Source: an uncultured Deferribacteraceae bacterium (lineage in GTDB: Bacteria > Chrysiogenota > Deferribacteres > CAMZNJ01). Taken from it: a stretch of DNA of 64,000 nt. Positions within the stretch are counted from its first letter, which is position 1, and every line of letters begins with the position of its first letter. Below the pieces are notes generated by a model, which was given only the letters and a program-made list of their open reading frames with translations, had not been told where the DNA came from and searched no databases. The stretch is from the NCBI GenBank assembly GCA_947313855.1, contig CAMZNS010000032.1, positions 1,306 through 65,305 of the forward strand, in the 5' to 3' direction. Below, in pieces: positions 9,502 to 54,799 of this stretch. Both the position numbers and the translations under genes were made by a program.

Positions 9502-10671
9502 TTAGTCGTAGCTCTCTAACTCCGCAAATGGGTAGCTGTCCACTTCATACACGTACCCCAAAGGGTTTTGTATGTAGTAAAATATACCAACCTGACAGAT
9601 GGGGAGGAGCGTATCGGTAATCCCTGCGGATTCGGTGCCTTGCACCACAACCATGGAGCCCGAAACGGCGTTACCCGTGGTTGGCGTTAACGTGGTTGGC
9701 GTGGCACCCAACCCCAAGGCAGAACACTCCTGCGGAAACCGACCATCCAAAGAGTACACGCGGAAGGCATCCAGTGGTGCAATATTCGCAAAAACCCTGC
9801 GACTCTCATCCGCCTGCAAAACCACTTTCGAGTTGAGTATCCACACCCCACCCCGCTCCGACAAAAACCCCTCTTCGTCACCCCCCACATGGGAATACAC
9901 AAGGGAATACTGCAAATCGCCAACATTCACAGCCCAAAACTCCATGCTATCCATGACAATATCGTAAACCCTCTGACTCGCTACCTGCTCGGCTGTGTCC
10001 GGTATAATCTGATACAAGTTCGTCGTCACAATATGAACTCTGTCCCCATACTTAACATACATGAACCCCTGAAAATGGGACGACTGCTCCCGTATTGCCG
10101 ATCCAAACTCCAAAACATGCCTCGCACCATTTCGAGTAACAATGGTCAGCTTACTAGGGTGCCCTTCACGGGTGACACTCAGGGGGGCATCGTCGTTGTT
10201 GCTGTCGTTGTTGCTGTCGTCAACACCATCCGCCATTTGTGGCAAAAAATCTTTCAAAAAATACTCGTCGCCAACTTCATCAATAGGTGTGGAACCCTCA
10301 CTTTTCAGATCGACCACATCCCGCAACACCTTCTCCACCAATGCGTTGTTAGCGGGGATACGCACACCCCTGTGAGTGTCGCCACCAGCGGTTTTATACG
10401 CGGTGATAAACCACCCCGCACCACCACCCGAAGCATACTCGAGGGTGTAAGCAGGCATCGACGTAACCATGGCACCAGCACCAACACTAGGCGTGTAACT
10501 CACCGACTGAATAACATTGCCGTCGTTGCCACTAACAAGGATATTCGCAGGGAGAACGTTTGCCACTGCACTAGGACGCACAGACACAACGTACACAGAC
10601 ACAGCAACAATTACTACAACCACGGCCATCACTTCAATACGTATTAAATGTGCAAGCTTGTGTTTAGTCAT
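9502..10671 (-). CDS. Membrane-anchored periplasmic protein, possibly the DUF4340-like accessory of the upstream GldG-type ABC system
   Basis: An N-terminal TM anchor (MAVVVVIVAVSVYVVSV) is present at the internal Met start. The assignment rests on position immediately downstream of the GldFG-like gene. Confidence 0.35.
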   Translation of the reverse strand: MTKHKLAHLIRIEVMAVVVVIVAVSVYVVSVRPSAVANVLPANILVSGNDGNVIQSVSYTPSVGAGAMVTSMPAYTLEYASGGGAGWFITAYKTAGGDTHRGVRIPANNALVEKVLRDVVDLKSEGSTPIDEVGDEYFLKDFLPQMADGVDDSNNDSNNDDAPLSVTREGHPSKLTIVTRNGARHVLEFGSAIREQSSHFQGFMYVKYGDRVHIVTTNLYQIIPDTAEQVASQRVYDIVMDSMEFWAVNVGDLQYSLVYSHVGGDEEGFLSERGGVWILNSKVVLQADESRRVFANIAPLDAFRVYSLDGRFPQECSALGLGATPTTLTPTTGNAVSGSMVVVQGTESAGITDTLLPICQVGIFYYIQNPLGYVYEVDSYPFAELESYD

Positions 10672-13255: not shown

Positions 13256-14188
13256 TTAACACGAAGAACCCGAACCAACCGAGTTACCCAAAATACCATC
13301 ATAAATACCCGAAAGATACTCCCGAACACCCACACCACTCAAAGAGGAAGAAACATCACCACCAACACGAAGATGAACCGTTCTCGCAAGACAACCACCA
13401 TCCAACACAAACACCGTATCACACAACTCAACCATATCATCCAACAGGTGCGAAGACACAACAACAATACTACCACAACCCATCAAACGAATAATCTCAT
13501 GCAAAAATATGCGAAAAGAAGCATCAACATCACTGGACGGCTCATCAAGAACAACTACTGGCGGTGAATAAAGCAGAGCAGCAGCAATACCCACACGCTT
13601 GCGGTAACCCTTGGACAGCTTACCGCAAAGGGTGGCGGAATACGGGGCAAGACCACACAGATTCATGACACGACGTGCCTCTTGGCGAGGGGTGGCAGAC
13701 GCGGTGGACGCGATGGACGCAGAAACACGGTCGGGACACCTCAACTTTGCACAAAACTCGAGGAACTCAACAACACTAAGCTCAGGCACAACAAAACTAT
13801 CCTCAGGGAGGTAGCCAACACTCACAGACGACGTGGGCGACGTGGGCGACGTGGGCGACGTGGACACATCAGGCACCCCACCAGCACTAATCTCCACCCC
13901 ACCAGTGGTCGCCACCATCGCACCAGCCATAATACGCATCCACGTGCTTTTCCCACTACCGTTTGCCCCCAGTATCCCGTACACCCCAGGGGCACCCATA
14001 ACAATACGCTCCCCACGTAGATCGAGGATCGTCTGCTTACGCCCCATACGCTTGCTGAGGTTGACGGTAGTCATCACGGTTGCAACAGGCGTAGCCGTAG
14101 TCGTGGTCGTGGTCGTAGGCTGTCTCTCCATACTGATCTGCCCCCAAATAAATACAATGCGAAATAACTGTACCATCATACACCGCAA
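13256..14188 (-). CDS. ABC transporter ATP-binding protein (GldA-like) with a TSPTSPTSPTSS insertion
   Basis: Walker A is GANGSGKST. The ABC signature is LSKGYRKRVGIAAAL. Walker B is VVVLDEPSSDVD. Confidence 0.8.
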   Translation of the reverse strand: MRCMMVQLFRIVFIWGQISMERQPTTTTTTTATPVATVMTTVNLSKRMGRKQTILDLRGERIVMGAPGVYGILGANGSGKSTWMRIMAGAMVATTGGVEISAGGVPDVSTSPTSPTSPTSSVSVGYLPEDSFVVPELSVVEFLEFCAKLRCPDRVSASIASTASATPRQEARRVMNLCGLAPYSATLCGKLSKGYRKRVGIAAALLYSPPVVVLDEPSSDVDASFRIFLHEIIRLMGCGSIVVVSSHLLDDMVELCDTVFVLDGGCLARTVHLRVGGDVSSSLSGVGVREYLSGIYDGILGNSVGSGSSC

Positions 14189-22603: not shown

Positions 22604-23759
22604 CAACAACTGCAACTACGACAACAATTCCCATCGAAACAGTGCCGAACAACACGATCCCATGTCGCCCAACCTCCTCTTCATCCGATTCAGCTCCCTT
22701 GGCGATGTACTCCTCACAACAGGGATCATCAAAGCCGCCCACGAAGCCCTCCCCCACGCAACAATCTCAGTCATCACCAAAAGCGAATACTACCACATTT
22801 ACGACGCATGCCCATTTGTGGACAACATCTACACCATACCCAACGGTGTCAGGTTCACCTCCTACCGCCGCCTGCTCCGCCATATCCGCGACAATATCAC
22901 CTTCCACTACATCATCGACCTACACAGCAACACTCGCTCCCACATGCTCGGCATCTGTTTCCGTTCCGCTCGTCTCAAGAAATACAAAAAGAATAGCTTC
23001 GCACGACGTCTCTACGCTAAAACCAAGATAAAGCTTCCCAGTATCGGTAAACATGTTGTTCAGAAGTATTACGCCTGCCTCTACACCACCCTTAAACCCC
23101 TACACAACAGCATTCCTGAGGGGAAACTGCCCCACCCTAAACAGGTCTCCCTCGAGTACCTTGCCCCCCATATCCACAGCGTTGGCAAGCTGAGTAAGGA
23201 GGTTCTCAAGGAGGTGTCGAAATTTTCCGATCAGAGTCGTCCATCGGTTGTTCTAGCCCCTTTTGCGAGCAAGCACACAAAACATATTCAGAATTATACA
23301 CATATTATGCGTAGCCTTGCCGCTGATTACAATGTTGTTCTTGTTGGCGTTTCACACGACTACTCCCCGCTGGACATGACCCTGTATGCCCCCAACAACA
23401 CCACAACTATTGTTGATCTTGTGGGGCGTCTTGAGATCCCCGACCTACTCCAGATTATCAGTACTGCGAACGTCGTTGTTAGTGCCGATTCGGGTATCAC
23501 CCATGCTGCTTCAGCGTTGCAGATCCCCCTTGTGACACTATTTTGCGGAACGGATACGCTCCTTGGGTTTGCCCCGTCGTATGGTATTTACGAAATCCTC
23601 GAGATAAACACCCTGAGCTGTCGTCCATGCAGTATTCATGGTAGGTCTAAGTGTAAGCTTGGCGATTTCCCCTGCTCGACCGGCATCACCCCCGCCATGG
23701 TTATGGAGACGGTTTCCCATGTTATTCAATATAAATATAGGGCACACATGCCGTCCTAG
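22596..23759 (+). CDS. Glycosyltransferase family 9 (second heptosyltransferase-like paralog)
   Basis: The N-terminal motif is LLFIRFSSLGDVLL. The C-terminal motif is SADSGITHAASAL. A CRPC...C..C motif is present. The likely start is the ATG at 22662. Confidence 0.8.
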   Translation: MSNNNCNYDNNSHRNSAEQHDPMSPNLLFIRFSSLGDVLLTTGIIKAAHEALPHATISVITKSEYYHIYDACPFVDNIYTIPNGVRFTSYRRLLRHIRDNITFHYIIDLHSNTRSHMLGICFRSARLKKYKKNSFARRLYAKTKIKLPSIGKHVVQKYYACLYTTLKPLHNSIPEGKLPHPKQVSLEYLAPHIHSVGKLSKEVLKEVSKFSDQSRPSVVLAPFASKHTKHIQNYTHIMRSLAADYNVVLVGVSHDYSPLDMTLYAPNNTTTIVDLVGRLEIPDLLQIISTANVVVSADSGITHAASALQIPLVTLFCGTDTLLGFAPSYGIYEILEINTLSCRPCSIHGRSKCKLGDFPCSTGITPAMVMETVSHVIQYKYRAHMPS

Positions 23760-23935
23760 GAGACGGTTTCCATACGGTTTCCATACGGTTCCCATATTGT
23801 TCCCATATTATTCAATATAAATATAGGGCACACATGCCGTCCTAGGAGACGGTTTCCATACGGTTCCCATACGGTTCCCATACGGTTCCCATATTGTTCA
23901 ATATAAATATAGGGCACACATGCCTATTAATCCAC
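23690..23935. repeat. Threefold direct repeat of the 3' end of the GT9 gene (unit TTCAATATAAATATAGGGCACACATGCC plus GGTT(T/C)CCATAC sub-repeats), followed by (CCCTATTG)4 at 23938-23970
   Basis: Direct reading. The first copy contains the native stop codon. Copies 2 and 3 lie downstream of it. Confidence 0.85.
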
Positions 23936-24099
23936 ATTTTGCCCCTTCCCTATTGCCCTATTGCCCTATTGCCCTATTTGATAAATTTCCCTTGATTTTT
24001 TTTGCAATACTCTTTATAGTTATTAACTAGTGATTATTAGTTTGATTTTTCAAACAAACTGTACTATTTTATACATAGGTGCTGTTTATTATTTTTTTT

Positions 24100-24173
24100 C
24101 GGGGCGTGGCGCAGCCTGGTAGCGTGCACCCTTGGGGTGGGTGAGGTCGCTGGTTCAAATCCAGTCGTTCCGA
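24100..24173 (+). tRNA. tRNA-Pro (anticodon GGG)
   Basis: A manual cloverleaf was built. The 7-bp acceptor stem is CGGGGCG/CGUUCCG with two G-U pairs. The D arm is GCGC/GCGU. The anticodon stem is CACCC/GGGUG with loop UUGGGGU. The T arm is GCUGG-UUCAAAU-CCAGU. The discriminator is A. No CCA is encoded. Confidence 0.85.
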
Positions 24174-24331
24174 TTTATTTTAAAAAATAGTTAATTGCAA
24201 ACATAGTAACCGTTTAAATTAAAAAATAAAAAATATTGCAGATACTTGTTAAGTTTTTGAATATTGCTACGATATACTAATTGTAGACACCACTCCACTC
24301 GCCTTGAGCCCTGTAGCATGGAGGCTATCTT

Positions 24332-25626: not shown

Positions 25627-26781
25627 ATGCCTTACAGCGATGAGCGTAACCAGCATGAACATAGCCATAGCCATAACCATAACCATAGTAATCGTGGCGA
25701 ACTTGTGTCCAGCCTCCTACCTGTGCACATCGTTCATACTGCCGACACACTCTCCACAGCGATGGCTCATGCCGTCATGGAGCACATAACGCGTATGGTT
25801 CATGAGAGCTCGACCGTGAACGCACCCGTGAACACACCCGCGAACACGAGCTCGCCCGTGAACAACACACCCGTGAGCACGAGCTCGCCAACAAATAGCA
25901 CTGATAACACTAGCAACACTGACAGTCGCATTGTTGTCCACCAATGTATTCGCGACTACGACTTCTTCCAACATATCACACATATTGCCACCAGCATTGC
26001 CAATCCATCCGTTAATGGGTCTATCATCGCAATCGACATGCACGGGATTCAGAGCTTCCACGCCGCCGTTGCTGTGCCCGGAATAGTTTCTGCACAGTGC
26101 TACGACGAGTTTACCAGCCAAATGACACGTGCACACAATGATGCCAAATGTATTACCCTTGCGTCGTCCATACTGTCGCCAAGCCTAGGGAGTCGCATTG
26201 CTGAGTTGTTCCTTACGACAGAGTTTGAGGGTGGGCGACATGCCGACAGGTTGAGGCTTCTTCATGGCATCCGGAGCAGTGCGACCGCGACCGCGACCGC
26301 AACCGCAACCGCAACCGCAACCGCAACCGCAACCGCAACCGCAACCGCAACCACGTTGATTGCCATCGGTTGCGATCACAGTGCACTCCAACACAAGAAT
26401 GAGATTAAGGCATACATCGAAGGGATGACGGTTCCGGGTAGCTCGAGTCATGTTTGCAAAGTTGTGGATGTTGGCACAAATACCACTGAAAGTGTACATT
26501 ACCCGAACTATGGGGAGGCAGTGGGTCGCTTGGTTGCCTCAGGCGAGGTTCACCTAGGGATTGTAATTTGTGGCACAGGTGTGGGGATAGTGAATGCTGC
26601 GAGCAAGGTTGATGGCGTGCGTAGCACCCTAGCGTTACACCCTAGCACGGCATACATTTCGCAATCGATGTACAGCTGCAACGTACTCGCCATAGGTGCA
26701 CGTACGACAGGTGTGGGTGTGGCGTTGGAGCTTGTTGAGTCGTTTGTTACGTCATGGCACCAGTATCGCCTAGCCCACTAG
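25627..26781 (+). CDS. rpiB: Ribose-5-phosphate isomerase B (RpiB/LacAB family) carrying an N-terminal partial duplication, a His-rich leader and an (Ala-Thr)12 linker
   Basis: The C-terminal 150 aa is a complete RpiB (IAIGCDHSA...GIVICGTGVGIVNAASKV...NVLAIGARTTG). Residues ~130-220 repeat the second half of RpiB, including the C-terminal signature FLTTEFEGGRHADRL. Confidence 0.7.
   Translation: MPYSDERNQHEHSHSHNHNHSNRGELVSSLLPVHIVHTADTLSTAMAHAVMEHITRMVHESSTVNAPVNTPANTSSPVNNTPVSTSSPTNSTDNTSNTDSRIVVHQCIRDYDFFQHITHIATSIANPSVNGSIIAIDMHGIQSFHAAVAVPGIVSAQCYDEFTSQMTRAHNDAKCITLASSILSPSLGSRIAELFLTTEFEGGRHADRLRLLHGIRSSATATATATATATATATATATATATTLIAIGCDHSALQHKNEIKAYIEGMTVPGSSSHVCKVVDVGTNTTESVHYPNYGEAVGRLVASGEVHLGIVICGTGVGIVNAASKVDGVRSTLALHPSTAYISQSMYSCNVLAIGARTTGVGVALELVESFVTSWHQYRLAH
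26281..26355 (+). repeat. In-frame hexanucleotide repeat (GCRACC)12 encoding (Ala-Thr)12 inside rpiB
   Basis: Direct reading. Confidence 0.9.
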
Positions 26782-28970: not shown

Positions 28971-31900
28971 CTAAATATAGTTCATTAGGGATAGACCTAG
29001 TATTCTGCTTGTTGCTTGCAGTGCTGTTTCGTATATCAGCATGGACTGTTGATAGTTATTCGTTATGTTGTAGATATCGTTTTCGGTAGATCCTAGGTAG
29101 TTGGATCGGAACTGTTCTAGGTTGAGGTTTATCCGTTCGTTAAACGATATCTGGGAGCTTACAATATTCCCTCTGTTACCTATATCGGCATAAATGCTAT
29201 TTACCTGAGAGGCAATTTTGTCGAATATGTCAATTTCCTGTTGTACTCCTGATCCGAGTGCGGTGGTGAAGTTGTTGCCACGCATTACACTCCCTGAGTC
29301 GAACCCCAAGGAGATTCCGTCTGCTACGAAATAGTTTTGGTTGGCAGTTTTGATGTTAATGTTGTCCACTATTCTGCCTGCGGAATCGGTAATGGCAACG
29401 CTCAAGGACTCCCCTGCACGTGCAAACCCTAGCACTATGTTGTTTTCAGCCCTTGGATCGTGGTTCCCCTCGACAAACCCCACTGTTGTGTTGGCTTTGT
29501 TGACCACAAATCCAAACCCTTTATCCCCTGTGCGTACGGCGGTGAAGAATGTGTCAAGACCGGCTGTGGCAAGCTCTGTTGCCAGATCGTCCATGAGGTT
29601 GTTGAAGCCTGTGGTGCTGTAGTCTTTGTTGGGGATGGTAATGGATTGTGTCTGTACTTGCGTCCCGACCATGTATCGGAAAGTTAGTGTTCGTTCGTCC
29701 ACAGATGCTTTTGACAGATCGAGGCTTACCATGTCTGCAACGGGGCTGATGAGGTCAGTACCTTTGTATCCTACGCCTAGGGGGTTGTTGGGGGAGGCGG
29801 ACAGATACCCTGTGCCACTAGTGTACGTTGGCGTAATGGTGTCGCCACTACCTGCAAACGTTATCAGTGTATTGAGCACTGCTGAGGCTGATATCTGGTT
29901 GTTTATCTCTGTGGCGAGTGCATCGACGTCGCCATAGTTGTTGGCTGGTATGGTGATGGTGTCGCTCACCCAAGTATTTGTTCCGAGGTCGAAGGTTTTG
30001 ATGGTCATATCTTGTGCAACGGCAATATTTAGGTTGACGGGGAAAGGATCCCCTGTTGGCTTCCCCGCATCGAGGGCAATAATTGCCGCATCACTTTGTG
30101 CCGCTAGGTTTATGTTGCTTGTGCCCGCCCCAGACTTTACCACGAGGGTGCCACCATTGTCGTGTGCTACTATCCCTACTGCTTTGAATGCGGGGTCGTT
30201 ATTGATTGCGTCGATGATAAGTTTGTTTTGCTGTTTGAGGGTCATACCTGTGGGGTAGCTTGTTGCGGGGATTTGAACGGGGATGGTGCGAAGTGTGTCT
30301 TTGTCGTTATCCCATACCTCCACGTCGAACAGGATATCGCCTAGGGCGGGGCTAACGAGGGTGGTGTTGGCGTACTCCAAGCGAAGCTCGTCTTGGAGGT
30401 ACGACTCGGGGGACGAAGCGAACTGATTAACATTGAATCCCCATGTATCGTTGTTGTAGCCGGTGTATTGCCCTGAGAAGAATGCCTTTGCGAGGAGATC
30501 GTTGTTCGGATCGAGGGCCCATTCGCTTGGTGACAGGTCGCCATTGTCGCGAACATTGTTGCTCAAGGCGTCTTCTAGGTTTTGGATGGCGTTAAATATG
30601 TTTACGTTACTGCCCTGCTCCGTAATATGCATATCCCCTAGGCGAAGGTTGTTGCCACCACTTAGTGCGATGGTGAAGTTCCTGTCCACGCCTATGTTTG
30701 CTGCATCAATGGGGGGAGTCCACGAGATCCCCTGCTTCAGATCCACAGGACCACCCTTGTAGTCGGCAACTGTACCGCTAGCTATGGGACCACCCTTTTT
30801 GCTTACGATATTGTAGGTTAAGTCGAACCGACCACCAACGTTGTCTATGCGATAGCTAACATCCCAGTCCATGTCCCCTTGACCATCGTAAGAGCCACTT
30901 ATAATTTGGTCGGTGTACCCCAACGAGCGATCGATACCTCTGTTGTCGGGGGTCATGCTCAAGGATAGGCGACTGTCGGAACCGCTGTACAAATCCTCCA
31001 CAACAATCTGACCGACGCTGTTGATGGAAACGATTGCTGAGCCGTTGTAGAAGTTGTTGGCGAAGTTGAGGAGATCCTCGAACGATTTGTTGACAGGGGC
31101 GGAGTAGTCGCGACCCAAGGTTGCACTGTGCAGGGTGCCGTTGGACATGATGGACAGGGATGTGTTCTCGCCGTAATTCTCATTCTCGAAGGTGTAGGTT
31201 ATGTCGTAAACGTCGGCAACACCAGTGGCAACAACGTGGGATTGGATGTTAAACCCTGTGTCCATACTCATCTGCTTGTTTATCATAAACTGAATATCTA
31301 ACTCTGTCGAACCCGCAGGGATAGCTAACGTGTAGTCGTTGCCGTTGATGGTGTAGTTGTATGTACCCGAAGAGAGGTTTGTGTTGGTAGCGGTTAGTTG
31401 CAAAAACTCGTTGGCACCCGGTACCGTAAACGGACGAGTCGACAGGTTGAACTCGTTATCTTTCCCGTAGGTGAGGTTCCCCGTGTAGTCCTGAAACTTG
31501 TCAAACCCCAAAGCGTTATCGATGTCGCCAAACGCTGAGAGGGAAACCTTATCCCCAACCTCATTGGTCATTATCATAAGTTGCTGTCCGTCGGCAACAC
31601 TACGCAATTCGCCAGATATATCCACAACATGGCTAGTATCTTGAGGCGTGGGGGATAGTAGGGATGACCCAGCAAACGTTGCTGTTTTCATGGCAACGTT
31701 GAAAGCGTCGGAAAGATTTTCCACACTACCATAATTCTTCGCCTCAAGCTCTACCTTGTAGTAACTACTGCCATAACGAACATAAGTAATACGTGCACTA
31801 TCAGGGAGATCGGCTAAGTTAACATTAACCTCACTGGTGCCCGACACCCGTGCATTCCCCACAGGATGACCATAATGATCGCTTGCCCGAAACTGAATCG

Positions 31901-32906
31901 CATCACCGGGACTACTCTTCACACCATCCAATCCCGAAAACACGGAGGCTAAGTTTATTGGGAGACCGCTGTAGGTGTTGAGAAACGAACTCTGCAACGT
32001 CTTGTACGTGGACATGAATAAGGAGTTGCCTGAAACATTCAATGCCACATTGGAGTTGCTCCCTATCTGCGACACGATCTCACTGGAATCACCTTTGTAC
32101 GTAATATCCGAACCCGCAACATAGGTGAAATGGTATTCGGTGAAAAGGTGCGTCGTATTTTCGGGTAGCTTTATGGCCATGCCACGACCTAGGTTGACCA
32201 CCTTGCCAGGCTCGTATGCCACTGATGTTGAGAGCATCAACTTGTTGCCGTCACTCGTTGCATCATCGCTAGAGTTGGAGTCGATGGGTACGGCATTCCC
32301 GTATTTGTCGTACAGGGTAAGCTCTGCCATACCGTTGGAAATTGTTACCCCCATGCGATAGTCGCCCTGAGGGAGCTCCCGCACGTCGCTGAATGTATCT
32401 GTGGCGAACAAAGCCCCGTCGCTGTTGTTGCTAGAGCGAATGTTCTTCACATCGTTGCTACCCTCAACAAACGGCGGTTCACCTGTGCCAAAACCACCAA
32501 AAATATAGTGATCAAGGTAATCGGTGTTGGACAAACCAACAACCTGTTGCATAATGGACTTAATCGCCGAAGCCATGGAGCTCCTATCGCTAGCACTAAG
32601 GGTATCGTTGGCACCCTGTATGGCGTAGTCGTTTTTGACAGTATTGATAATGTTCACTAGGGAACCAACGGCGGAATCCGACTCTGTCAGCCAGTGTGAG
32701 GCTTTGTCCGCATTGTCGCCATAGGATTGCAGAATATTTATTTGTTGCTGTGTTTTGAGGTAGAACGAGTAGGATCGAACGTCGTTTTCAGGGTTAATCA
32801 ATTGGCGACCATTTAAAACACGCATGTAGTCTTGTTGCATGCGTTGGTTTGTGGACTGCATATGTGCTGCCCCTGTGTTGTACAAGCTGTTGAATGTAAC
32901 TCTCAT
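28971..32906 (-). CDS. flgL: Flagellar hook-associated protein 3 FlgL, giant form (1311 aa)
   Basis: The N-terminal flagellin-like helices are MRVTFNSLYNTGAAHMQSTNQRMQQ. The C-terminal helices are QEIDIFDKIASQVNSIYADIGNRGNIVSSQISFNERIN...SRILGLSLMNYI. About 900 aa of central insertion lie between them. Confidence 0.7.
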   Translation of the reverse strand: MRVTFNSLYNTGAAHMQSTNQRMQQDYMRVLNGRQLINPENDVRSYSFYLKTQQQINILQSYGDNADKASHWLTESDSAVGSLVNIINTVKNDYAIQGANDTLSASDRSSMASAIKSIMQQVVGLSNTDYLDHYIFGGFGTGEPPFVEGSNDVKNIRSSNNSDGALFATDTFSDVRELPQGDYRMGVTISNGMAELTLYDKYGNAVPIDSNSSDDATSDGNKLMLSTSVAYEPGKVVNLGRGMAIKLPENTTHLFTEYHFTYVAGSDITYKGDSSEIVSQIGSNSNVALNVSGNSLFMSTYKTLQSSFLNTYSGLPINLASVFSGLDGVKSSPGDAIQFRASDHYGHPVGNARVSGTSEVNVNLADLPDSARITYVRYGSSYYKVELEAKNYGSVENLSDAFNVAMKTATFAGSSLLSPTPQDTSHVVDISGELRSVADGQQLMIMTNEVGDKVSLSAFGDIDNALGFDKFQDYTGNLTYGKDNEFNLSTRPFTVPGANEFLQLTATNTNLSSGTYNYTINGNDYTLAIPAGSTELDIQFMINKQMSMDTGFNIQSHVVATGVADVYDITYTFENENYGENTSLSIMSNGTLHSATLGRDYSAPVNKSFEDLLNFANNFYNGSAIVSINSVGQIVVEDLYSGSDSRLSLSMTPDNRGIDRSLGYTDQIISGSYDGQGDMDWDVSYRIDNVGGRFDLTYNIVSKKGGPIASGTVADYKGGPVDLKQGISWTPPIDAANIGVDRNFTIALSGGNNLRLGDMHITEQGSNVNIFNAIQNLEDALSNNVRDNGDLSPSEWALDPNNDLLAKAFFSGQYTGYNNDTWGFNVNQFASSPESYLQDELRLEYANTTLVSPALGDILFDVEVWDNDKDTLRTIPVQIPATSYPTGMTLKQQNKLIIDAINNDPAFKAVGIVAHDNGGTLVVKSGAGTSNINLAAQSDAAIIALDAGKPTGDPFPVNLNIAVAQDMTIKTFDLGTNTWVSDTITIPANNYGDVDALATEINNQISASAVLNTLITFAGSGDTITPTYTSGTGYLSASPNNPLGVGYKGTDLISPVADMVSLDLSKASVDERTLTFRYMVGTQVQTQSITIPNKDYSTTGFNNLMDDLATELATAGLDTFFTAVRTGDKGFGFVVNKANTTVGFVEGNHDPRAENNIVLGFARAGESLSVAITDSAGRIVDNINIKTANQNYFVADGISLGFDSGSVMRGNNFTTALGSGVQQEIDIFDKIASQVNSIYADIGNRGNIVSSQISFNERINLNLEQFRSNYLGSTENDIYNITNNYQQSMLIYETALQATSRILGLSLMNYI

Positions 32907-35356: not shown

Positions 35357-35426
35357 TGGCTAACACTACTCCACATATCACTCTATTCCCTAGCAATTTT
35401 CTAGCCAACTCTCCGCCGTCTGGCGT

Positions 35427-35531
35427 TGTGGACGTGTGGGACGTGTGGGACGCGGGGGGACGCATGGAACGTGTGGGACGTGTGGGACGTGTGGGACGCG
35501 GGGGACGCGGGGGGACGCGGGGGGACGCATG
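35427..35531. repeat. G-rich tandem repeats (GGGACGTGT / GGGACGCGGG units, about 12 copies) in the flgM-flgN spacer
   Basis: Direct reading. There are multiple GGG/GGGG runs on the plus strand. Confidence 0.85.
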
Positions 35532-35628
35532 AGGATGGACGGTGCTGGCACTCTAGTGGAGCAGGTGATATTTTACGGGAGCAAAGCGAACAGCGAAGAT
35601 TAATGGAGAAAACGGACGACCAAATGAA

Positions 35629-35700
35629 CGCAGGAGCAAAACTAACGAACGCAGGAGCAAAACTAACGGACAAGTGGACAAAACTAACGGACAGGCGGAC
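35629..35700. repeat. Tandem about 20-mer GCAGGAGCAAAACTAACGRAC (3 degenerate copies) immediately downstream of flgM
   Basis: Direct reading. Confidence 0.75.
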
Positions 35701-36020
35701 TACTCCGAGTCAAGAGATATCTCATCAAACACACTATTAACCATCGCCGCCGCAATTAAATCGGGAGAGGGCTTGTACGTTCCATTAGCAATCTTTTCCT
35801 TAAGATCATTCACCAAATCCAAACGAATATTCGGCTGACTCTCAATGGACTTGGACAAAGAGGAAGCACTACTACTCACAGATACAGAGGCTGCCGATGG
35901 CACCTTGGCACCAGGGGAGGACTCTGCACCCACAAGAGCATTACGTTTACTACTGTTTACACTTACCCTATCTGAATCTAGATAAGGTGGCAATAACGAC
36001 GCATCTCCGTTTATTTTCAT
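35700..36020 (-). CDS. flgM: Anti-sigma-28 factor FlgM
   Basis: The C-terminal signature is RLDLVNDLKEKIANGTYKPSPDLIAAAMV. Confidence 0.7.
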   Translation of the reverse strand: MKINGDASLLPPYLDSDRVSVNSSKRNALVGAESSPGAKVPSAASVSVSSSASSLSKSIESQPNIRLDLVNDLKEKIANGTYKPSPDLIAAAMVNSVFDEISLDSE

Positions 36021-38179: not shown

Positions 38180-40159
38180 TTAGTTAAACGCCCCCGCTGC
38201 TTCGAGTATGCTTACAATGTTCACGCTATTGTACAACCCTGCCACACGCCTTGCTGTAAACCCTGCGTCGTTGGTATGAGTAACGTCGGCACCGTAAACG
38301 AGTAGTTGTTGTACTAGCTGTTGGTTGTTGTTTGTTACCCCCCATATTAGTGGTGAGTCGCCGGCAATGTTGTAGATATTCGGGTTCGCACCATTTTTCA
38401 GCAGTAGGTTGACGATGGTGAGTGAGTCGCGACTTGCGGCTAGTATGAGTGGTGTGTTCCCTTCAACATTTTGTGTGTTCAGGTTGGCACCAGCATCAAC
38501 TAGCATGGACACAATACCGTATTGATCTTGTGCGATTGCGAGGAAGATGGCGGTGTTGCCTGTTTCGTTGTCCACAATATCGGGGGAGGCACCCAACCTT
38601 AGGGCACGCTGTACTTTGGCGATGTTGCCCGTATTGGCACCATCAAACATCATGGCATTGTATTCGGTTAGTTGGCTGTAGTATTCGGAGAGGATATTTT
38701 GTATTACGGGATAGCCGTTCTGTTCAGCAATGTCGTATGCTGTGGAGCGTTCGTTGTTTTGAGTAAGTGGGTTCGGTTTGTTTTCGATAACGAGGCGAAC
38801 CATATCGAGGAACCCATTGGAAGACGCAACCATGAGTGGTGTGTTCCCGTCGGAGTTGACGATGTCGACCATGGCACCGTCGTTGAGTGCTTCACGTGCG
38901 GTGGCAATGCTGTTATTCATTACGGCAAGCATGAGGGGGGTGTTGCCTTGATTGTCTTTTGTTTCGAGGTTGGCACCGTAGTTGACTAACGTACGCATGG
39001 TGAATACGTTGTCGTTGTAGGATGCGAGGGAGAGGGCTGTTCGACCATTGTTGTCCCGTGTTTCGATATCAGTGGAGTAGGAGGCTAGTATGTTTGCTGT
39101 GGCGGAGTTGCCCACACTGGCAGCAATCATGAGGGGGGTACGCCCCTGAGCGTCCACCGTATCTATCTGTGCACCGCTAGCAATGAGCAGGTTAACAATG
39201 TCGGAGTCGCCACGGTATGATGCGTACGCCAAAACGGACATCTCTTGGTTATCCTTGCTGTTGGGGCTAGCACGAAGGCGTAGTAGCATCTCCACAACGT
39301 CTTCATGGGAGTACACAACAGCATACATGAGGGCGGTTTGCCCCCGAGCGTTGGTTCGGAAGATGTCCGCACCCTGTTCGATGAGGAATGTTGCTGTTTC
39401 GTATTGGTTGTTGGCGAGGGCGTACATGAGAGCTGTGTTGCCTAAGGCATCCACGGTGTTGATGCTCAGGGTGGACACCTCGATACTGCGAGCAAGGGCA
39501 TCAAGCTGACCGCGAGACGCCGCATAAAGTAGGGGGCTCTTAGGGGACAAACCAACATCTATGTTGACCAAACTCTTCTCTTGAACCACAGTGTAACGCT
39601 TAGTCAACGTTGCAATACTGTTGGAGTCGTCTAGGTTGCTCTTCATACCCATACGCTCACGCATACTGTAAGCGTTAGCTGAGTCCTCAATGTAGAGGAT
39701 CGTCTGAACGGTGTCGGAACGCTCACCAATGGTTTCACTCGAAGTGAGCACGTTGTCCACAACAACAAGCTTACGAAGCAGGGTTGACTGTGGTATCTGG
39801 TAAATATTGCCGTAATCGAAGTCCACCGCAATCCCGATACGATTAACATCTGTCCCCAAGGCATTGTTGTTGATGAACCACTCACCACGACGACGAACAA
39901 GATCTATGGACACGTCGCGATAACCACGCTTCTCCAAAACAACATGATAGCTGTCGCCAGAGATGCGAACCCATGAAGGGAGTGCCGCAACTTTATTGTT
40001 GATAAAATATTCAGCATTCTTTTTGGATGGTGGCTTGGTAAGGCTTCGAACATCAGACGAAAAATATGAACAAGACGCTATTATGGGCAAAATTAACATC
40101 ACCAAACCCAACTTCAAAAACCTCAACATAACAAGAACCCTCCGCACACGGACACACAA
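38180..40159 (-). CDS. Ankyrin-repeat lipoprotein (about 12 ANK repeats), co-directional with and immediately upstream of flgI
   Basis: The lipobox is LILPIIASC. There are repeated ANK consensus units (G.TALMYA....V..LL..GA..N..D..G.TPL). The likely start is the Met at 40129. Confidence 0.8.
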   Translation of the reverse strand: MCVRVRRVLVMLRFLKLGLVMLILPIIASCSYFSSDVRSLTKPPSKKNAEYFINNKVAALPSWVRISGDSYHVVLEKRGYRDVSIDLVRRRGEWFINNNALGTDVNRIGIAVDFDYGNIYQIPQSTLLRKLVVVDNVLTSSETIGERSDTVQTILYIEDSANAYSMRERMGMKSNLDDSNSIATLTKRYTVVQEKSLVNIDVGLSPKSPLLYAASRGQLDALARSIEVSTLSINTVDALGNTALMYALANNQYETATFLIEQGADIFRTNARGQTALMYAVVYSHEDVVEMLLRLRASPNSKDNQEMSVLAYASYRGDSDIVNLLIASGAQIDTVDAQGRTPLMIAASVGNSATANILASYSTDIETRDNNGRTALSLASYNDNVFTMRTLVNYGANLETKDNQGNTPLMLAVMNNSIATAREALNDGAMVDIVNSDGNTPLMVASSNGFLDMVRLVIENKPNPLTQNNERSTAYDIAEQNGYPVIQNILSEYYSQLTEYNAMMFDGANTGNIAKVQRALRLGASPDIVDNETGNTAIFLAIAQDQYGIVSMLVDAGANLNTQNVEGNTPLILAASRDSLTIVNLLLKNGANPNIYNIAGDSPLIWGVTNNNQQLVQQLLVYGADVTHTNDAGFTARRVAGLYNSVNIVSILEAAGAFN

Positions 40160-42758: not shown

Positions 42759-43574
42759 TTACAAACCGCTGAGCAACTCCACAACATCCCCTAACCCCTT
42801 GCGGTTCCGCTTCTCCACCAAAAACTGCACAAAACCTAAGGGATCGTAGTTGTATATTTTGTCTTCACGAATACCCGCACCAAGGGCAAGGGCAAGGGCT
42901 TCATCCACAATACCAACCTGAGACGAGTGGTGTGCATCAGAGGACAAAACAACATGCATGTCTAACTGTGCAGCAATGGTTGCAATGAGCCCACAGTTCG
43001 GCTTGCTCCCCAACCTCGATCGCACCAAGGAGCTGTTGTTTATCTCCACCAACACATTATTCGCCTTCGCCACCTCCATAACCCGAAAGTAGTCGCAGCT
43101 GTAGTGGGGATTGCCAAGGTGACCAAGAATATCCACCCTGCCACTTTGGACAACGTCCATGAGTGTTTGGGTAATGTTGGCGGGATCGGATTGTGGGTAA
43201 ACAGCATCATGGAGGGACGCAACAACAACGTCCAGACGTTCATTCACAGCGTCGGGGATGTCGATGGGCACCCCCCCCTTTTTCACAGGCATAATATTCG
43301 CCTCAACACCGCGAAGGATGATGACACCCTCCTGAACCCTCGGACAAGTGGATTGATTGCTAATGCCGTAAATATGAGCACCACCAGGCATTTCAGGGGC
43401 ATGCTCTGTGGAAACAATAACCTGAACACCCAAACTACTTGCTGCCCGTGCATTCTCCCACAAAGTGGAGTAGGCATGGGTACTGAGAACCGTATGGGTG
43501 TGCGTATCCAGAAGATTGCGACGCCCCTGAGATGTGCTTCCTAAGCTTCCTATGTTTTCCATAATAACTGCCAC
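42759..43574 (-). CDS. PHP-domain metal-dependent phosphoesterase (YcdX/histidinol-phosphatase-like)
   Basis: The N-terminal motif is DTHTHTVLSTHAYS. PHP-fold His/Asp/Glu residues are distributed through the protein. Confidence 0.7.
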   Translation of the reverse strand: MAVIMENIGSLGSTSQGRRNLLDTHTHTVLSTHAYSTLWENARAASSLGVQVIVSTEHAPEMPGGAHIYGISNQSTCPRVQEGVIILRGVEANIMPVKKGGVPIDIPDAVNERLDVVVASLHDAVYPQSDPANITQTLMDVVQSGRVDILGHLGNPHYSCDYFRVMEVAKANNVLVEINNSSLVRSRLGSKPNCGLIATIAAQLDMHVVLSSDAHHSSQVGIVDEALALALGAGIREDKIYNYDPLGFVQFLVEKRNRKGLGDVVELLSGL

Positions 43575-43597
43575 CTCGTATTTGATTTTTTCATTTG

Positions 43598-43731
43598 CAA
43601 CTTACGAACACAACTTACGAACACAACTTACGAACACAACTTACGAACACAACTTACGAACGCGACTTACGAACACAACTTACGAACGCAACTTACGAAC
43701 GCAACTTACGAACGCAACTTACGAACGCGAC
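43598..43731. repeat. Intergenic tandem 13-mer CTTACGAAC(A/G)C(A/G)A, about 10 copies, in the 5' region of the PHP gene and just downstream of ruvB
   Basis: Direct reading. The unit length is not a multiple of 3. Confidence 0.9.
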
Positions 43732-45005
43732 GAAGACGGTGTCCAAGGTACGCCAAGATGTGCATATGCCTGCTCAGTGGCAACCCGTCCACGTGGCGTT
43801 TTATGCACAAAACCTAAATAAATAAGGTAAGGCTCAATAACATACTCCACCGTGACCCTGTCCTCCGAAAGCATGGACGCCATCGTCTCAAGACCCACCG
43901 GTGCCCCTTTATACACCTCTATCATTGCACGCAAATAACCCACATCTGCCGTCGTAAGACCGATGGGATCAACGCCGATACGATTCATACCCTCTTGTGC
44001 GATGGACTTCGTAATCTTGCCACCATTGTAAACGTCGGCAAAATCGCGAATACGATTAAGGGTGCGAAGGGCTATGCGAGGCGTGCCACGTGAACGACTA
44101 CCTATTTCGATAGCAGCATCAGCATCTAAAGTGGCGATACTAGAACTACTCTGAGCAGCATTCAACACGATAGTAGCAAGCTCCTCATGTGTGTAGTACT
44201 CAAGACGCATAATAATGCCAAACCGATCCCGAAGGGGGGAAGTGAGCATACCAGCACGCGTTGTCGCACCAATAAGGGTGAACGGCGGGAGATCCATGGT
44301 AACAGTGCGAGCAGCAGGACCCTGACCGATGATGATGTCCAAACGGTAGTCCTCCATGGCAGGGTAAAGGAGCTCCTCAACCGATGGATGAAGGCGATGG
44401 ATCTCGTCGATAAATAAAACGTCGCCAGCGTTGAGGTTGGTCAAGATGGCCGCCAAGTCGCCCTGCTTTTCGATGGTAGGACCTGTGGTAGTGCGGATTG
44501 TGGTGCCCATTTCGTTGGCGATAATGTTCGCAAGGGTGGTTTTCCCTAACCCTGGGGGACCATAAAACAGTGTGTGATCCAACGGCTTCTCACGCCGACG
44601 CGCTGCTTCGATGTAAACCTTGAGGTTGCCAACAACATGGGACTGACCGATGTACGTGCTGAAACTTTGGGGTCGTGTGCTGATGTGTGCATTTATCGTG
44701 GGATCTGCCCACGTATCATCGGCACCGTCAGCGTCGTAACCAGAGCCGCCAGCATCGTAACCAAAGCCGTCAGCATCGTAACCCGAGCCGTCAGCATCGT
44801 AGCCAGAACCGCCAGCATCGTAACCCGAGCCGCCAGCATCGTAACCAGAACCGCCAGCATCGTAACCCGAGCCGTCAGCATCGTAGCCAGAACCGCCAGC
44901 ATCGTAACCCGAGCCGCCAGCATCGTAACCAGAACCGCCAGCATCGTAACCCGAGCCGTCGCCTTTCGTATCCCTATTCTTTTCCATGGAAGAAGTATAC
45001 CCCAT
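43719..45005 (-). CDS. ruvB: Holliday junction branch-migration helicase RuvB with an N-terminal about 16-copy (GSGYDAG)-type repeat extension
   Basis: The RuvB core has Walker [12 protein letters not shown], the motif [11 protein letters not shown] and sensor motifs. The only in-frame Met codons lie upstream of the repeat array, so the repeats are translated if the gene is intact. Confidence 0.9.
44722..44960 (-). repeat. In-frame 15-nt tandem repeat (about 16 copies) encoding GSGYDA(G/D)G at the ruvB 5' end
   Basis: Direct reading. The unit length of 15 preserves the frame. Confidence 0.9.
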
Positions 45006-45087
45006 TCCCCCCTATCTTGCAAACCATAAACGAAAAATGGGTTTGAACCCGAAAAATGACGAATTCAAACCCATAATTAAGTGGTAT

Positions 45088-45370
45088 GTTGCTTGCTTGC
45101 GTTACGTTGCTTGCTTGCGTTACGTTGCTTGCTTGCGTTGCTTGCTTGCTTGCTTGCGTTACGTTGCTTGCTTGCGTTGCTTGCTTGCTTGCGTTACGTT
45201 GCTTGCTTGCGTTGCTTGCTTGCTTGCTTGCGTTACGTTGCTTGCTTGCGTTGCTTGCTTGCTTGCTTGCTTGCGTTACGTTGCTTGCTTGCGTTACATT
45301 CCCACCCGCGTTACTTGCTTGCTTGCGTTACGTTGCTTGCTTGCGTTACATTCCCGCCCGCGTTGCCCGC
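45088..45370. repeat. Intergenic tandem array of about 18-mer GTTGCTTGCTTGCGTTAC units with GCTTGC sub-repeat variation, about 280 nt, immediately upstream of ruvB
   Basis: Direct reading. It generates several spurious Leu/Ala/Cys-rich ORFs in the track. Confidence 0.9.
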
Positions 45371-47292
45371 TATGGCTGCGTCACAACACCAGATTCGCTC
45401 GCATCTACTGTGTACAAATCAAGGTAGTCATACAACCAAAATCTCACAGCTGATGCAGTCTGTATTACCGTCTTTTTGCCATTAATATCGTATGAGTAGG
45501 ATGTTACCGACTCACTATCGAGCCTACCAAGGGGGTTACCCACACTATTCGTTGGTCGACCGAAGAACGACAATGAACCGGGATCATCTGTTCCTAATTT
45601 TGCTAGGGCGTCATTAGAGCTTTGCTGAGAGGCATCGTAGTAATCGGTTACAACAAGGTTGAAAAATGTTCCCTTCTCTTTTGGGGATGTAGTCCCAACC
45701 TGTGGTGCTTTCGTGTAGTTAAACACACCCTTAAACGCATCGTTTGCATCAACAGTAATGGAGCGATTGTCCACCTCAGACTGAGCAATTAATATTCTAC
45801 TTGGCGAGGGGCTTAACAGTATCGGTGCATCGTATCCGCAAATATCCACCTTAAGATTAGTTGACTTTGCTATTTGTGGGTCGTAACCAGATTGACCATA
45901 GTGTGGCGAAAGGGGGTTGCTAGTCACGGTGGTTATAACCAAGCTGGAATCGGCATAACACGTGATACCCGCAGCTGTGGACGGCTGAATACCAGAAGTG
46001 GTGCTCGATAACCCTTGATACGGATCAGAGAACGAGTAATTCCCCGTCGATGGCGAAAGGGTGGGTGATGGTGCACCGTATTCATCTGCCGACAACTCGA
46101 AAGAGCTGAAGCTTTGGGATGTGGGATTGTGGACTTTTAACTCCACAAAGTGCACCCTCATTACGTCACCATTGATACCACTTGCAACTGTCGACTTAAA
46201 CTTATCCCGAACAGTAGCTGTAATATCTGTGTTGCTACTATCTTGCACAGTGTAGGAGCATGATGATTCCGCTAGGGGCGACTCGTGCGTAATGTAAGAG
46301 CATGGGTCGAAGCCAATGGAGATGAGTGCCACACCGTTCTCCACAGCATAAACACCAAGGTTGGAAGCAAGGGTCAGACCGCCGTCAGTAAGGTCATTGG
46401 TGGTGGCATTTCGCTGCACATCGGGGATAGCCTTCACACGAAGGTTGCAACCTACGGAATCAGTGTTGCCTGTAACCCCTGGGTATGGGGAGCACAGGGA
46501 GTAGAGTCCGGAGTATTGTTCCGTGTCGAACAGTATTTTTGAGAAGAATTCTTCGTAAGCGGTACTTGTTTTGCTGGTCGATGCCGAAAATTGTGGCAGA
46601 AGGGTATTGCTTGACGGCATGTCAAGGGTGCCTGAGTCGTACTTCATGTGAACATCGTAGGAGTTCGGCACCGGATCGCCTGAGTGTGGATCAACATCTT
46701 GTTCAAAGTCGAGCCCTGAGAACTTAACGTCGAACGGTTTGATTGTTGCGTGCGTGCTAGTTAGTGAGTGGGGATCAAATACCTGTTGCCCCCCCTCGTT
46801 CCATGATGCTCGCAACGGGTGTAGTACTAGTGTGTTTAGTTTTCCGGAAACAATCTCAGCGTCAACATTAAACTGTTCATGTAGCTTACCGATGCACAAT
46901 GTAGTGTCGTTCGGGTTAACTCCCCCGCTGTAGGAGGACAGTGTAAATTTGTTCATGCCTTCCGGAACATTTATGGTGCCACTTGCCTTAGCTCCTGAGA
47001 ACCCAGCCGCAAGTTTGGCATTTGGGTCGCGATTGGAGCTGATGGCGATACATCTTGTTTCGGTGGTGATAATTTGAGCAAGGTTACCAGAGTTTGCAAC
47101 TGCCTCTGTTTGTTGAAATTCGAAGAAAACATCAGCTCTCTTCTGCTCAGCTGTTCCACCACAAGCAACAATTACGGTTGTTGTTAGCACCGCAATAGCT
47201 AGTAATGCAATACGTCGCATAAGTCTTACCTCCAAGGGCAAACATAAACATAGATATAGGTCGTTTCCCCACTGTGTATTCTGTAAAATCAA
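45370..47292 (-). CDS. Large putative surface lipoprotein of unknown function
   Basis: The probable start is the Met at 47220. A lipoprotein signal follows (RRIALLAIAVLTTTVIVACGG). The protein is Ser/Thr/Asn-rich with no recognisable domain. Confidence 0.45.
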   Translation of the reverse strand: MILQNTQWGNDLYLCLCLPLEVRLMRRIALLAIAVLTTTVIVACGGTAEQKRADVFFEFQQTEAVANSGNLAQIITTETRCIAISSNRDPNAKLAAGFSGAKASGTINVPEGMNKFTLSSYSGGVNPNDTTLCIGKLHEQFNVDAEIVSGKLNTLVLHPLRASWNEGGQQVFDPHSLTSTHATIKPFDVKFSGLDFEQDVDPHSGDPVPNSYDVHMKYDSGTLDMPSSNTLLPQFSASTSKTSTAYEEFFSKILFDTEQYSGLYSLCSPYPGVTGNTDSVGCNLRVKAIPDVQRNATTNDLTDGGLTLASNLGVYAVENGVALISIGFDPCSYITHESPLAESSCSYTVQDSSNTDITATVRDKFKSTVASGINGDVMRVHFVELKVHNPTSQSFSSFELSADEYGAPSPTLSPSTGNYSFSDPYQGLSSTTSGIQPSTAAGITCYADSSLVITTVTSNPLSPHYGQSGYDPQIAKSTNLKVDICGYDAPILLSPSPSRILIAQSEVDNRSITVDANDAFKGVFNYTKAPQVGTTSPKEKGTFFNLVVTDYYDASQQSSNDALAKLGTDDPGSLSFFGRPTNSVGNPLGRLDSESVTSYSYDINGKKTVIQTASAVRFWLYDYLDLYTVDASESGVVTQP

Positions 47293-53869: not shown

Positions 53870-54799
<930 letters not shown>

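Follow-up and report, generated by a model that had tools for sequence, protein, structure and literature searches.

The ruvB gene on a 64,000-nucleotide (nt) stretch of DNA from an uncultured bacterium of the Deferribacteraceae (assembly GCA_947313855.1, contig CAMZNS010000032.1; the whole stretch, positions 1–64000, is called the window below) encodes a RuvB protein in which a long repetitive N-terminal tail is fused to a conserved core. From a comparison of related genomes, we conclude that the in-frame minisatellite encoding much of this tail is translated. The explanation that we favour, with a probability of roughly 0.6, is that the tail is a slippage-generated and tolerated low-complexity extension at a permissive N-terminus. 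The interval had been flagged in a preliminary description of this DNA, made from the sequence alone; the elements that matter most are the following:

43719–45005, minus strand: ruvB, the longest open reading frame (ORF) in the flagged interval, 428 amino acids (aa).
44676–45005, minus strand: RuvB N-terminal tail, residues 1–110, consisting of a 15-aa leader, 11 heptads and an 18-aa linker (from the translation).
44730–44960, minus strand: in-frame minisatellite, 11 x 21 nt encoding [D/G]G[S/F]GYDA (from the unit table and Tandem Repeats Finder (TRF), whose coordinates are 44724–44958).
43722–44675, minus strand: RuvB core, residues 111–428, with P-loop AAA+ domain, lid and C-terminal winged helix (from Pfam, structure alignment, AlphaFold2 (AF2) and dN/dS, the ratio of non-synonymous to synonymous substitution rates).
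43719–43721, minus strand: ruvB stop codon TAA, within the first unit of a downstream 13-nt array (from reading the sequence and the ORF listing).

Comparisons were made with the syntenic ruvB loci of three related assemblies, L001 (GCA_947313805.1), L002 (GCA_947313825.1) and L083 (GCA_947313785.1). Together with the window these are four assemblies forming two species pairs, i.e. the window with L001 and L002 with L083, and all comparative statements refer to this set.

A canonical RuvB core

By every sequence-level membership test the window protein is a RuvB, and branch migration together with RuvA is its predicted activity. With canonical bacterial RuvBs of known structure (PDB entries 7x7q, 1hqc, 7pbl and 1in4) it shares a colinear core, the three Pfam domains and the catalytic motifs. 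RuvB_N scores 263.8 bits against a cut-off of 27 (E = 5.9e-79), AAA_lid_4 73.0 bits against 27 (E = 1.7e-20) and RuvB_C 81.3 bits against 24.7 (E = 4.8e-23). Colinearity with solved RuvBs runs from residue 107/110 to about residue 420 (E of about 1e-115 to 1e-97), the best structure alignment pairing residues 110–419 with residues 24–331 of 7x7q_M (E = 2.6e-115). Walker A (GPPGLGKT, G149–T157) and Walker B (DEIH, D200–H203) occupy invariant columns of a 32-sequence alignment, as do the sensor and arginine motifs TTR (T248–R250), PLRDRFG (P257–G263) and RGTPR (R306–R310). An AF2 run on this alignment gives a predicted local distance difference test (pLDDT) score mostly above 90 for the core. 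The claim of the preliminary description that the AAA+ core is intact is borne out by the Pfam scores, by the structure alignment and by a dN/dS of 0.05–0.08 against the relatives, which shows that the core is under strong purifying selection. The same dN/dS and the complete set of intact motifs rule out that ruvB is a pseudogene.

The difference from canonical RuvBs lies in front of this core, where 110 aa precede the RP motif compared to 1–26 aa in solved structures and constructs, and in the gene being located apart from ruvA. No ruvA adjoins ruvB, and none turned up in a Pfam scan that covered 37 ORFs of the window and left some 12 candidates aside. Rather, the neighbours are a lipoprotein-like gene upstream and a PHP-domain gene followed by radA downstream.

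An acidic, predicted disordered tail encoded by a minisatellite

TRF resolves the coding array either at a period of 21 nt with 11.1 copies (86% matches) or at 42 nt with 5.6 copies (92% matches), and units 1–4 recur exactly as units 5–8, i.e. as an 84-nt higher-order repeat. The 15-nt core motif GGTTACGATGCTGRC, with two mismatches or fewer allowed, has 11 matches, every one of them inside the array, compared to a mean of 0.28 matches in shuffled sequences, none of which reached 11. In the preliminary description this region appeared as 16 copies of GSGYDAG in perfect 15-nt repeats; the motif and its in-frame location stand, while copy number, unit size and perfection have to be revised to 11 imperfect units of 21 nt.

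In the AF2 model the pLDDT is below 50 throughout residues 1–108, which are without secondary structure, and the tail is thus predicted to be disordered. The earlier view that such a disordered repetitive tail is fused to RuvB therefore finds support in this score as well as in the start codons and the evolution of the linker described below. Tail tracts are limited to Gly, Ala, Ser, Tyr and Asp, with Tyr spaced every 5–7 residues; the tail of the window protein contains 32 Gly, 20 Asp, 14 Ala, 13 Ser and 12 Tyr and has a net charge of -18, and the net charge among the relatives ranges from -13 to -28.

The tail matches no Pfam family. Used alone as a protein query it retrieved nothing at E<=1e-3, a weak negative, since the search is insensitive to low-complexity sequence and missed even P0001. 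Among the 120 best RuvB matches, a comparable tail occurs in this lineage only, and a search of the literature found no report of a repeat-bearing RuvB. A signal peptide or a role of the 15-aa leader in secretion was ruled out, as a hydrophobic core is missing.

The N-terminus of RuvB is a plausible permissive site, because the peptide ahead of the RP motif is short and variable in solved RuvBs and because N-terminally His-tagged RuvB was used in cryo-electron microscopy (PMC10272136). The other RuvBs in our comparison tend to have an acidic peptide at this place. Between K14 and R111 the window protein contains neither Lys nor Arg, and tryptic proteomics would therefore miss the repeat.

Evidence that the repeat is translated

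In all four genomes every TRF period of the coding arrays is a multiple of 3, in contrast to the non-coding arrays at the same ruvB loci, with their periods of 4, 5, 10, 12, 13, 18, 30, 35 and 39. Across the 18-codon linker, the window and L002 differ by four synonymous and no non-synonymous changes as well as by one in-frame 6-nt indel, at a synonymous divergence (dS) of 0.58 in the core, which argues that the linker is coding. Variation among the units of the array affects five of the seven third codon positions but only two of the 14 other positions (Fisher P=0.017), and in all four assemblies the ORF stays open from the leader through arrays that differ from each other into the common linker and core.

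As the preliminary description had stated, in-frame start codons lie only upstream of the repeat: canonical ones occur at codons 1 and 7, and there is no in-frame ATG, GTG or TTG from codon 7 to beyond codon 132. Near-cognate codons ahead of the core are confined to ATA104 and ATC108. The alternative offered there, that the array is a 5'-untranslated region (UTR) followed by a near-cognate start, does not sit well with a linker that evolves as coding sequence and with array periods that are all multiples of 3. Taken together, these comparisons lead us to conclude that the repeat is translated, with initiation at ATG1 or ATG7.

Variation of the array among related genomes

The leader is identical in all four genomes and the linker is common to all of them, with an additional in-frame Lys-Ile in L002 and L083. 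What lies between the two varies strongly:

Window RuvB: 428 aa, tail of 110 aa, coding array of 11 x 21 nt.
L001 RuvB: 386 aa, tail of 68 aa, coding array of 5 x 21 nt (GSGYDAD).
L002 RuvB: 407 aa, tail of 89 aa, degenerate Gly/Ala/Tyr/Asp block with TRF periods of 9, 15, 24 and 33.
L083 RuvB: 438 aa, tail of 120 aa, degenerate Gly/Ala/Tyr/Asp block with TRF periods of 9, 12, 15, 18, 33, 45 and 78.

Comparing copy number between relatives, as had been proposed, thus reveals clear differences in tail length. The window and L001 carry 11 and 5 units, respectively, at a ruvB core dS of 0.067. The low-complexity part comprises 57 aa in L002 and 88 aa in L083, despite cores that are 99.8% identical (dS 0.0085). 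Between the two pairs, core dS is 0.50–0.58 with a dN/dS of about 0.05. As judged from these assemblies, the coding array is hypervariable.

An exact-sequence look-up of the window RuvB drew a blank, although an identical protein is on record within a cluster (P0121). Close homologues were found in one lineage only, the next RuvBs being about 60–66% identical and, where named, belonging to the Deferribacteres. Scanning genome contigs with the protein as query yielded only RuvBs of 47–61% identity, and no further relatives came to light when metagenome contigs were scanned with the DNA of the conserved leader and linker. Apparent tail matches in L016, L028, L005 and L073 were rejected as spurious tblastn extensions into upstream frames that contain stop codons.

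A repeat-rich genome

The ruvB array is embedded in a genome with many such elements. Counting merged TRF arrays with a score of at least 50, the window contains 41, which corresponds to 6.4 per 10 kb and 4.3% of its bases. This is approximately 7-fold the density of 0.93 per 10 kb at 80 other bacterial ruvB loci; the relatives L001 and L002 have 4.2 and 5.3 arrays per 10 kb, respectively. In-frame repeats also occur in AroE, RpiB, an ABC ATPase, an 858-aa ABC-auxiliary protein, RpoN and RapZ. Among arrays of at least three copies inside ORFs, every period is divisible by 3 (the sole exception straddles a stop codon), whereas the intergenic arrays of the window also have periods of 4, 7, 8, 11, 13, 14, 17, 22 and 31.

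The genome probably belongs to a gut symbiont of the vent shrimp Rimicaris, as suggested by the grouping of the four assemblies into two species pairs, a GC content of 48%, the Deferribacteres as source of the nearest named RuvBs, and the flagellar genes and ankyrin-repeat protein encoded in the window. From the midgut of Rimicaris exoculata, four metagenome-assembled genomes (MAGs) of Deferribacteres have been described, which represent two species with a GC content of 46.7–47.6% and sizes of 1.25–1.36 Mb and were assembled with MEGAHIT from 2x150-bp reads (PMC9636832). In neither this study nor that on R. kairei (PMC10344455) are tandem repeats mentioned, apart from those related to CRISPR.

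Origin and possible function of the tail

In the scenario that we favour, a minisatellite would have been inserted into the short N-terminal peptide ahead of the conserved RP...YIGQ start of the core. Replication slippage or unequal recombination would then expand, contract and reshuffle the array, much faster than point substitutions accumulate, with the survivors being those changes that preserve the frame and a benign composition of Gly, Ala, Ser, Tyr and Asp. The outcome would be a genome-specific, disordered and strongly acidic tail of 68–120 aa on a canonical and constrained RuvB motor. More generally, short tandem repeats would have proliferated throughout the genome, the tail being one case, and those inside genes would persist only where the site is permissive and the period a multiple of 3. 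Our data show the anatomy of the locus, the conserved frame, substitutions of the coding type, the hypervariability, the predicted disorder and the richness in repeats. The slippage mechanism and the near-neutrality of the tail, like the promoter, terminator and leaderless-start assignments given below, are what we infer from these patterns.

Several findings weigh against this picture. Stop codons are also missing from the arrays in the sense +1 frame, so that an open ORF alone is weak evidence of translation, and in the window and L001 the frame is kept automatically by a unit of 21 nt; translation of the tail is itself a comparative conclusion from four assemblies, and thus from two species pairs. 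The genes neighbouring ruvB within 12 kb hardly vary in length among the four genomes, which makes the ruvB tail the most variable coding segment of these 12 kb and an outlier even in this repeat-rich genome. An acidic tract rich in Gly, Tyr and Asp has been kept at the same site in both species across a dS of about 0.5–0.6, and this persistence, together with the very pure composition of the tract, could reflect selection for a function. Copy numbers were taken from MAGs that are probably based on short reads and could represent consensus or partly collapsed values. Finally, promoter-like sites in our scan were not more frequent than expected by chance (three found, 2.7 expected).

Some of these points would fit an adaptive module, a role that we regard as possible but tentative. 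Six acidic, disordered and Tyr-studded tails per hexamer could mimic DNA or be autoinhibitory and thereby gate the engagement of DNA or RuvA, a part played by the acidic tails of other DNA-binding proteins, or they could act as stickers and spacers in condensate formation, and copy-number variation would tune the strength of the effect. That the tract persists at one position in both species while its unit architecture has turned over completely, and that ruvB alone shows large length variation in its 12-kb neighbourhood, is in line with such a role, and so are the restricted composition, the regular spacing of Tyr and the net charge found in all relatives; given that the native pre-core peptide of other RuvBs tends to be acidic, the repeat would exaggerate an existing feature. 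A tuned module, however, would not be expected to differ approximately 1.5-fold in length between proteins with 99.8% identical cores, nor did the 120 best matches or the tail-only query reveal another RuvB with a similar tail. Moreover, unrelated housekeeping proteins of the window carry Gly/Asp/Ala/Tyr, Thr/Pro, Ala/Thr and Gly/Ser repeats, such that a mutational origin explains the composition, and concerted evolution by itself keeps repeats pure. With so many repeats in the genome, a neutral origin is also a simpler account than the phase-separating or interaction tail envisaged in the preliminary description. An even more specific version, in which the tail is a selected, length-tunable appendage of RuvB (whether as DNA mimic, autoinhibitory element or condensate former) and the minisatellite allows the symbiont population to vary its recombination or branch-migration activity rapidly, seems rather improbable to us.

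That the repeat is an untranslated 5' leader, with ruvB starting at ATA104 or ATC108 and array length modulating expression via the RNA, we consider extremely unlikely. Neither ATG has a normally spaced Shine-Dalgarno sequence, in-frame ATA and ATC codons do occur just ahead of the core, and a 21-nt unit keeps the frame open even without selection. In L002 and L083, however, units range from 9 to 78 nt and the frame is still kept, with all periods being multiples of 3, although intergenic arrays of the same genome freely use other periods. The linker codons ahead of ATA104 show synonymous changes only, unit variation is biased to third codon positions, and no Shine-Dalgarno-like element precedes ATA104 or ATC108; initiation at ATA or ATC is very rare in bacteria. 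There is also little reason to believe that short-read metagenome assembly created the arrays or distorted their lengths and that the hypervariability is not biological. The relatives are MAG contigs; should these be the ones from the Rimicaris gut, then MEGAHIT and 2x150-bp reads were used to assemble them. The arrays span 110–270 nt and contain exact internal repeats as long as 106 nt. Yet this longest exact repeat is shorter than a 150-nt read, such that the arrays can be assembled in principle, and the largest default k-mer of MEGAHIT (k = 141) also exceeds it. Furthermore, an array occupies one and the same site in all four independent assemblies, with flanks and synteny being conserved, and the unit architectures of the two species differ beyond what collapse or expansion can produce. 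A tolerated, slippage-generated extension thus remains the explanation that we prefer.

The conserved segment upstream of the tail

Between a further array upstream and ATG1 lies a short region of unique sequence with the following elements:

45006–45087: unique segment of 82 nt between the upstream array and ATG1, conserved in all relatives.
45027–45074, minus strand: terminator-like hairpin of about 15–17 pairs (15-bp stem) with an 8-nt loop, plus a T-rich tail (from a scan and a 3-genome alignment).
44994–45022, minus strand: promoter-like TTGCAA-17 nt-TATACT, overlapping codons 1–4 (from a consensus scan, 9/12 matches).
44985–44987, minus strand: ATG of codon 7, the second one in frame and possibly a leaderless start, 7 nt after TATACT.
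45007–45012, minus strand: G-run GGGGGG, Shine-Dalgarno-like, at -7 to -2 of ATG1 and thus unusually near the start.

The preliminary description had the upstream array fill the entire promoter region, which is contradicted by these 82 nt. The hairpin proper occupies 45074–45037 and is followed by the tail TTTTCGTTTA. It has the sequence features of a Rho-independent terminator, i.e. a GC-containing stem-loop, a U-run and a conserved stem, and in the 3-genome alignment it shows no broken pair, five one-sided wobble-compatible changes and one compensatory change. As its wobble pairs work only on the strand carrying ruvB and the upstream gene, it is probably the terminator of the upstream lipoprotein-like gene, a putative assignment from sequence. 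The 76 nt from the T-rich tail through codon 15 contain just two differences between the window and L002, against 34% at 4-fold degenerate sites (P of about 1e-11). The strongly conserved 31 nt downstream of the hairpin together with the leader are the likelier candidate for the promoter and initiation region of ruvB.

In the scenario that we favour, the signals for ruvB expression would reside within the conserved 82 nt and consist either of TTGCAA-17-TATACT, with a leaderless start near codon 7, or of ATG1 with its close G-run. The putative promoter may thus give a leaderless ruvB mRNA starting at about the ATG of codon 7. A typical Shine-Dalgarno sequence is missing at both ATGs, since the G-run is located at -7 to -2, whereas, of 28 starts inspected, 21 belong to other genes with a Shine-Dalgarno-like word, and there this word begins at -8 or further upstream, mostly at -8 to -16. 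A sigma-54 promoter at TGGTTTGCA was ruled out by eye, as only 3 nt instead of 10 separate its GG and GC elements. Rfam returned no match at E<=1 in 43400–45600, and in the whole window a tRNA-Pro is the sole match above the gathering score.

Flanking arrays and neighbouring genes

Two non-coding arrays flank the gene:

45088–45347, minus strand: upstream compound array of about 260 nt, (GCAA)n tracts punctuated by CGTAAC (TRF periods 4, 35 and 39).
43598–43726, minus strand: downstream intercistronic array, 13 nt x 9.9, sense unit GTTCGTAAGTTGY, between ruvB and the PHP-domain gene (from TRF).

The upstream array had previously been described as 280 nt of 18-mers. That it is a separate array holds true, but it comprises about 260 nt with periods of 4, 35 and 39, and 18-mers are found in some sub-blocks only. 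It is situated between the stop codon of the lipoprotein-like gene (45370–45372) and the hairpin, and our scan found no promoter-like site inside it, observations that speak against the proposal that this minisatellite tunes ruvB expression. Most simply, it would be part of the 3'-UTR of the upstream gene and lie outside the ruvB promoter. The corresponding arrays are 18 nt x 6.9 in L001, 10 nt x 10.3 in L002 and 10 nt x 3.9 in L083.

The downstream array, which had escaped the preliminary description, supplies the ruvB stop codon with its first unit; L001 has 12 nt x 2.9 at this position, L002 and L083 have no array. Thus, the coding array and both of its neighbours vary from genome to genome. 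If our explanation of the tail is correct, the two flanking arrays would be non-coding cases of the same process in neutral spacers, i.e. in the 3'-UTR of the upstream gene and in the gap between ruvB and the PHP-domain gene.

This arrangement does not resemble a phase-variable contingency locus. As the coding units are multiples of 3, the frame never shifts, and the upstream array precedes the hairpin, 82 nt from the ATG, rather than being placed between -35 and -10 hexamers; with the frame fixed and this array outside promoter elements, there is no phase-variation switch.

The gene upstream of ruvB (45370–47292, minus strand) encodes a protein of 616–640 aa (about 616 aa in the window) with a lipoprotein-type signal, MRRIALLAIAVLTTTVIVACGG, and without Pfam match. 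It is 80% identical between the two species, compared to 94–98% for its neighbours, and looks like a fast-evolving surface protein. Downstream, the PHP-domain gene (42759–43574, minus strand) most likely starts at ATG 43562, which has GAGGTG 9 nt upstream and conserved in the relatives, and not at GTG 43574, the start of the longest ORF. No terminator-like site was found between ruvB, the PHP-domain gene and radA, which may be co-transcribed.

Repeats elsewhere in the window

Several other proteins of the window carry repeats of their own. In RpiB (25627–26781, plus strand), the isomerase domain comprises residues 245–376 and is preceded by an N-terminal extension of about 240 aa, which contains His-rich and Thr/Ser/Pro/Asn-rich stretches as well as (Ala-Thr)x11 encoded by a 6-nt x 11.5 array at 26284–26352. 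The 858-aa ABC-transport auxiliary protein (ORF 10664–13240, minus strand) has a 21-nt repeat encoding the heptad GDGDAYA x 2.3 at 11863–11911, which uses the four codons of the ruvB tail (GGT, GAT, GCT and TAC), and it has GASGGG, GESGES and GGASGGV repeats in addition. The shikimate dehydrogenase AroE (1986–3020, plus strand) has TPATPATPATPTTPTTP close to the C-terminus and HHGSESPPV duplicated internally, the ABC ATPase (13256–14188, minus strand) contains poly-Thr and TSPTSPTSP, and a 309-aa ORF without Pfam match (53870–54799, minus strand) contains four 6/12-nt arrays. Two intergenic arrays are found just upstream of the tRNA-Pro (GGG), the only tRNA of the window: an 86-nt x 2.5 repeat with nested blocks of 11-nt ACGGTTCCCAT x 4 (23709–23978) and an 8-nt x 3.9 array (24099–24174).

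Arrays free of stop codons also give rise to spurious ORFs of more than 100 codons, at 45086–45427 (plus strand), a Leu/Ala/Cys-rich frame on the strand opposite to the GCAA array, and at 35426–35740 (plus strand), which crosses a 9-nt x 10.7 array. Both are likely to be miscalled as genes, and a 78-aa ORF has been called over the upstream array in L002. Two further proteins of the window are unusual in their domain content. A 659-aa protein (38180–40159, minus strand) consists almost wholly of ankyrin repeats, which are typical of host-associated bacteria, and a 1311-aa protein (28971–32906, minus strand) has a flagellin N-terminal domain only and is encoded in a flagellar cluster with FlgK, FlgI and a rod-binding protein.

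Relation to known systems and significance

A genome-wide parallel is provided by Ehrlichia ruminantium, a host-associated bacterium with a small genome, for which PMC10710844, citing Collins et al. 2005 PNAS, describes many short tandem arrays that vary between close strains and are mostly located in non-coding spacers. Arrays that occur genome-wide and vary are common to both, as illustrated here by the density of 6.4 per 10 kb in the window and by the differences in all three arrays at ruvB. The coding density of E. ruminantium, however, is about 64%, compared to about 89% here (roughly estimated from the longest ORFs, at least two of them spurious). Furthermore, many arrays of the window are inside housekeeping genes, and the phylum, probably Deferribacterota, is unrelated.

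At the level of the single gene, the ruvB array shares with bacterial in-frame variable-number tandem repeats (VNTRs) and contingency repeats that it is a slippage-prone coding repeat whose copy number varies between strains. Classic cases concern surface or secreted proteins, or on/off switching by frameshift. Here, by contrast, it is a cytoplasmic DNA-repair motor that carries the repeat, and units that are multiples of 3 do not allow on/off switching. Analogues in functional architecture may be Acinetobacter Hfq, with its glycine-rich tail of GGFGGQ repeats, and housekeeping proteins of Plasmodium with their low-complexity inserts, which by analogy are lineage-specific, variable Gly-rich repeats outside of a folded core that handles nucleic acids; protein, terminus and composition differ, the RuvB tail being acidic and containing Tyr.

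What makes the case of RuvB rare is the placement of the repeat: a strongly constrained DNA-repair motor tolerates a hypervariable tail of 68–120 aa, whereas bacterial coding minisatellites are usually discussed in the context of surface proteins and phase variation. The richness in repeats and their in-frame occurrence in housekeeping enzymes represent an unreported property of this symbiont lineage. In practical terms, the arrays could be used as VNTR markers for typing symbiont strains across vent sites, and at the same time they put annotation at risk by misleading gene callers through spurious ORFs. Were the tail a selected appendage, this would amount to a contingency-like mechanism that acts on the dosage of a disordered region and not on the on/off state of a gene. 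If the tail is functional, this RuvB would be a simple, naturally occurring model in which to ask how an AAA+ motor is tuned by a disordered tail of varying length.

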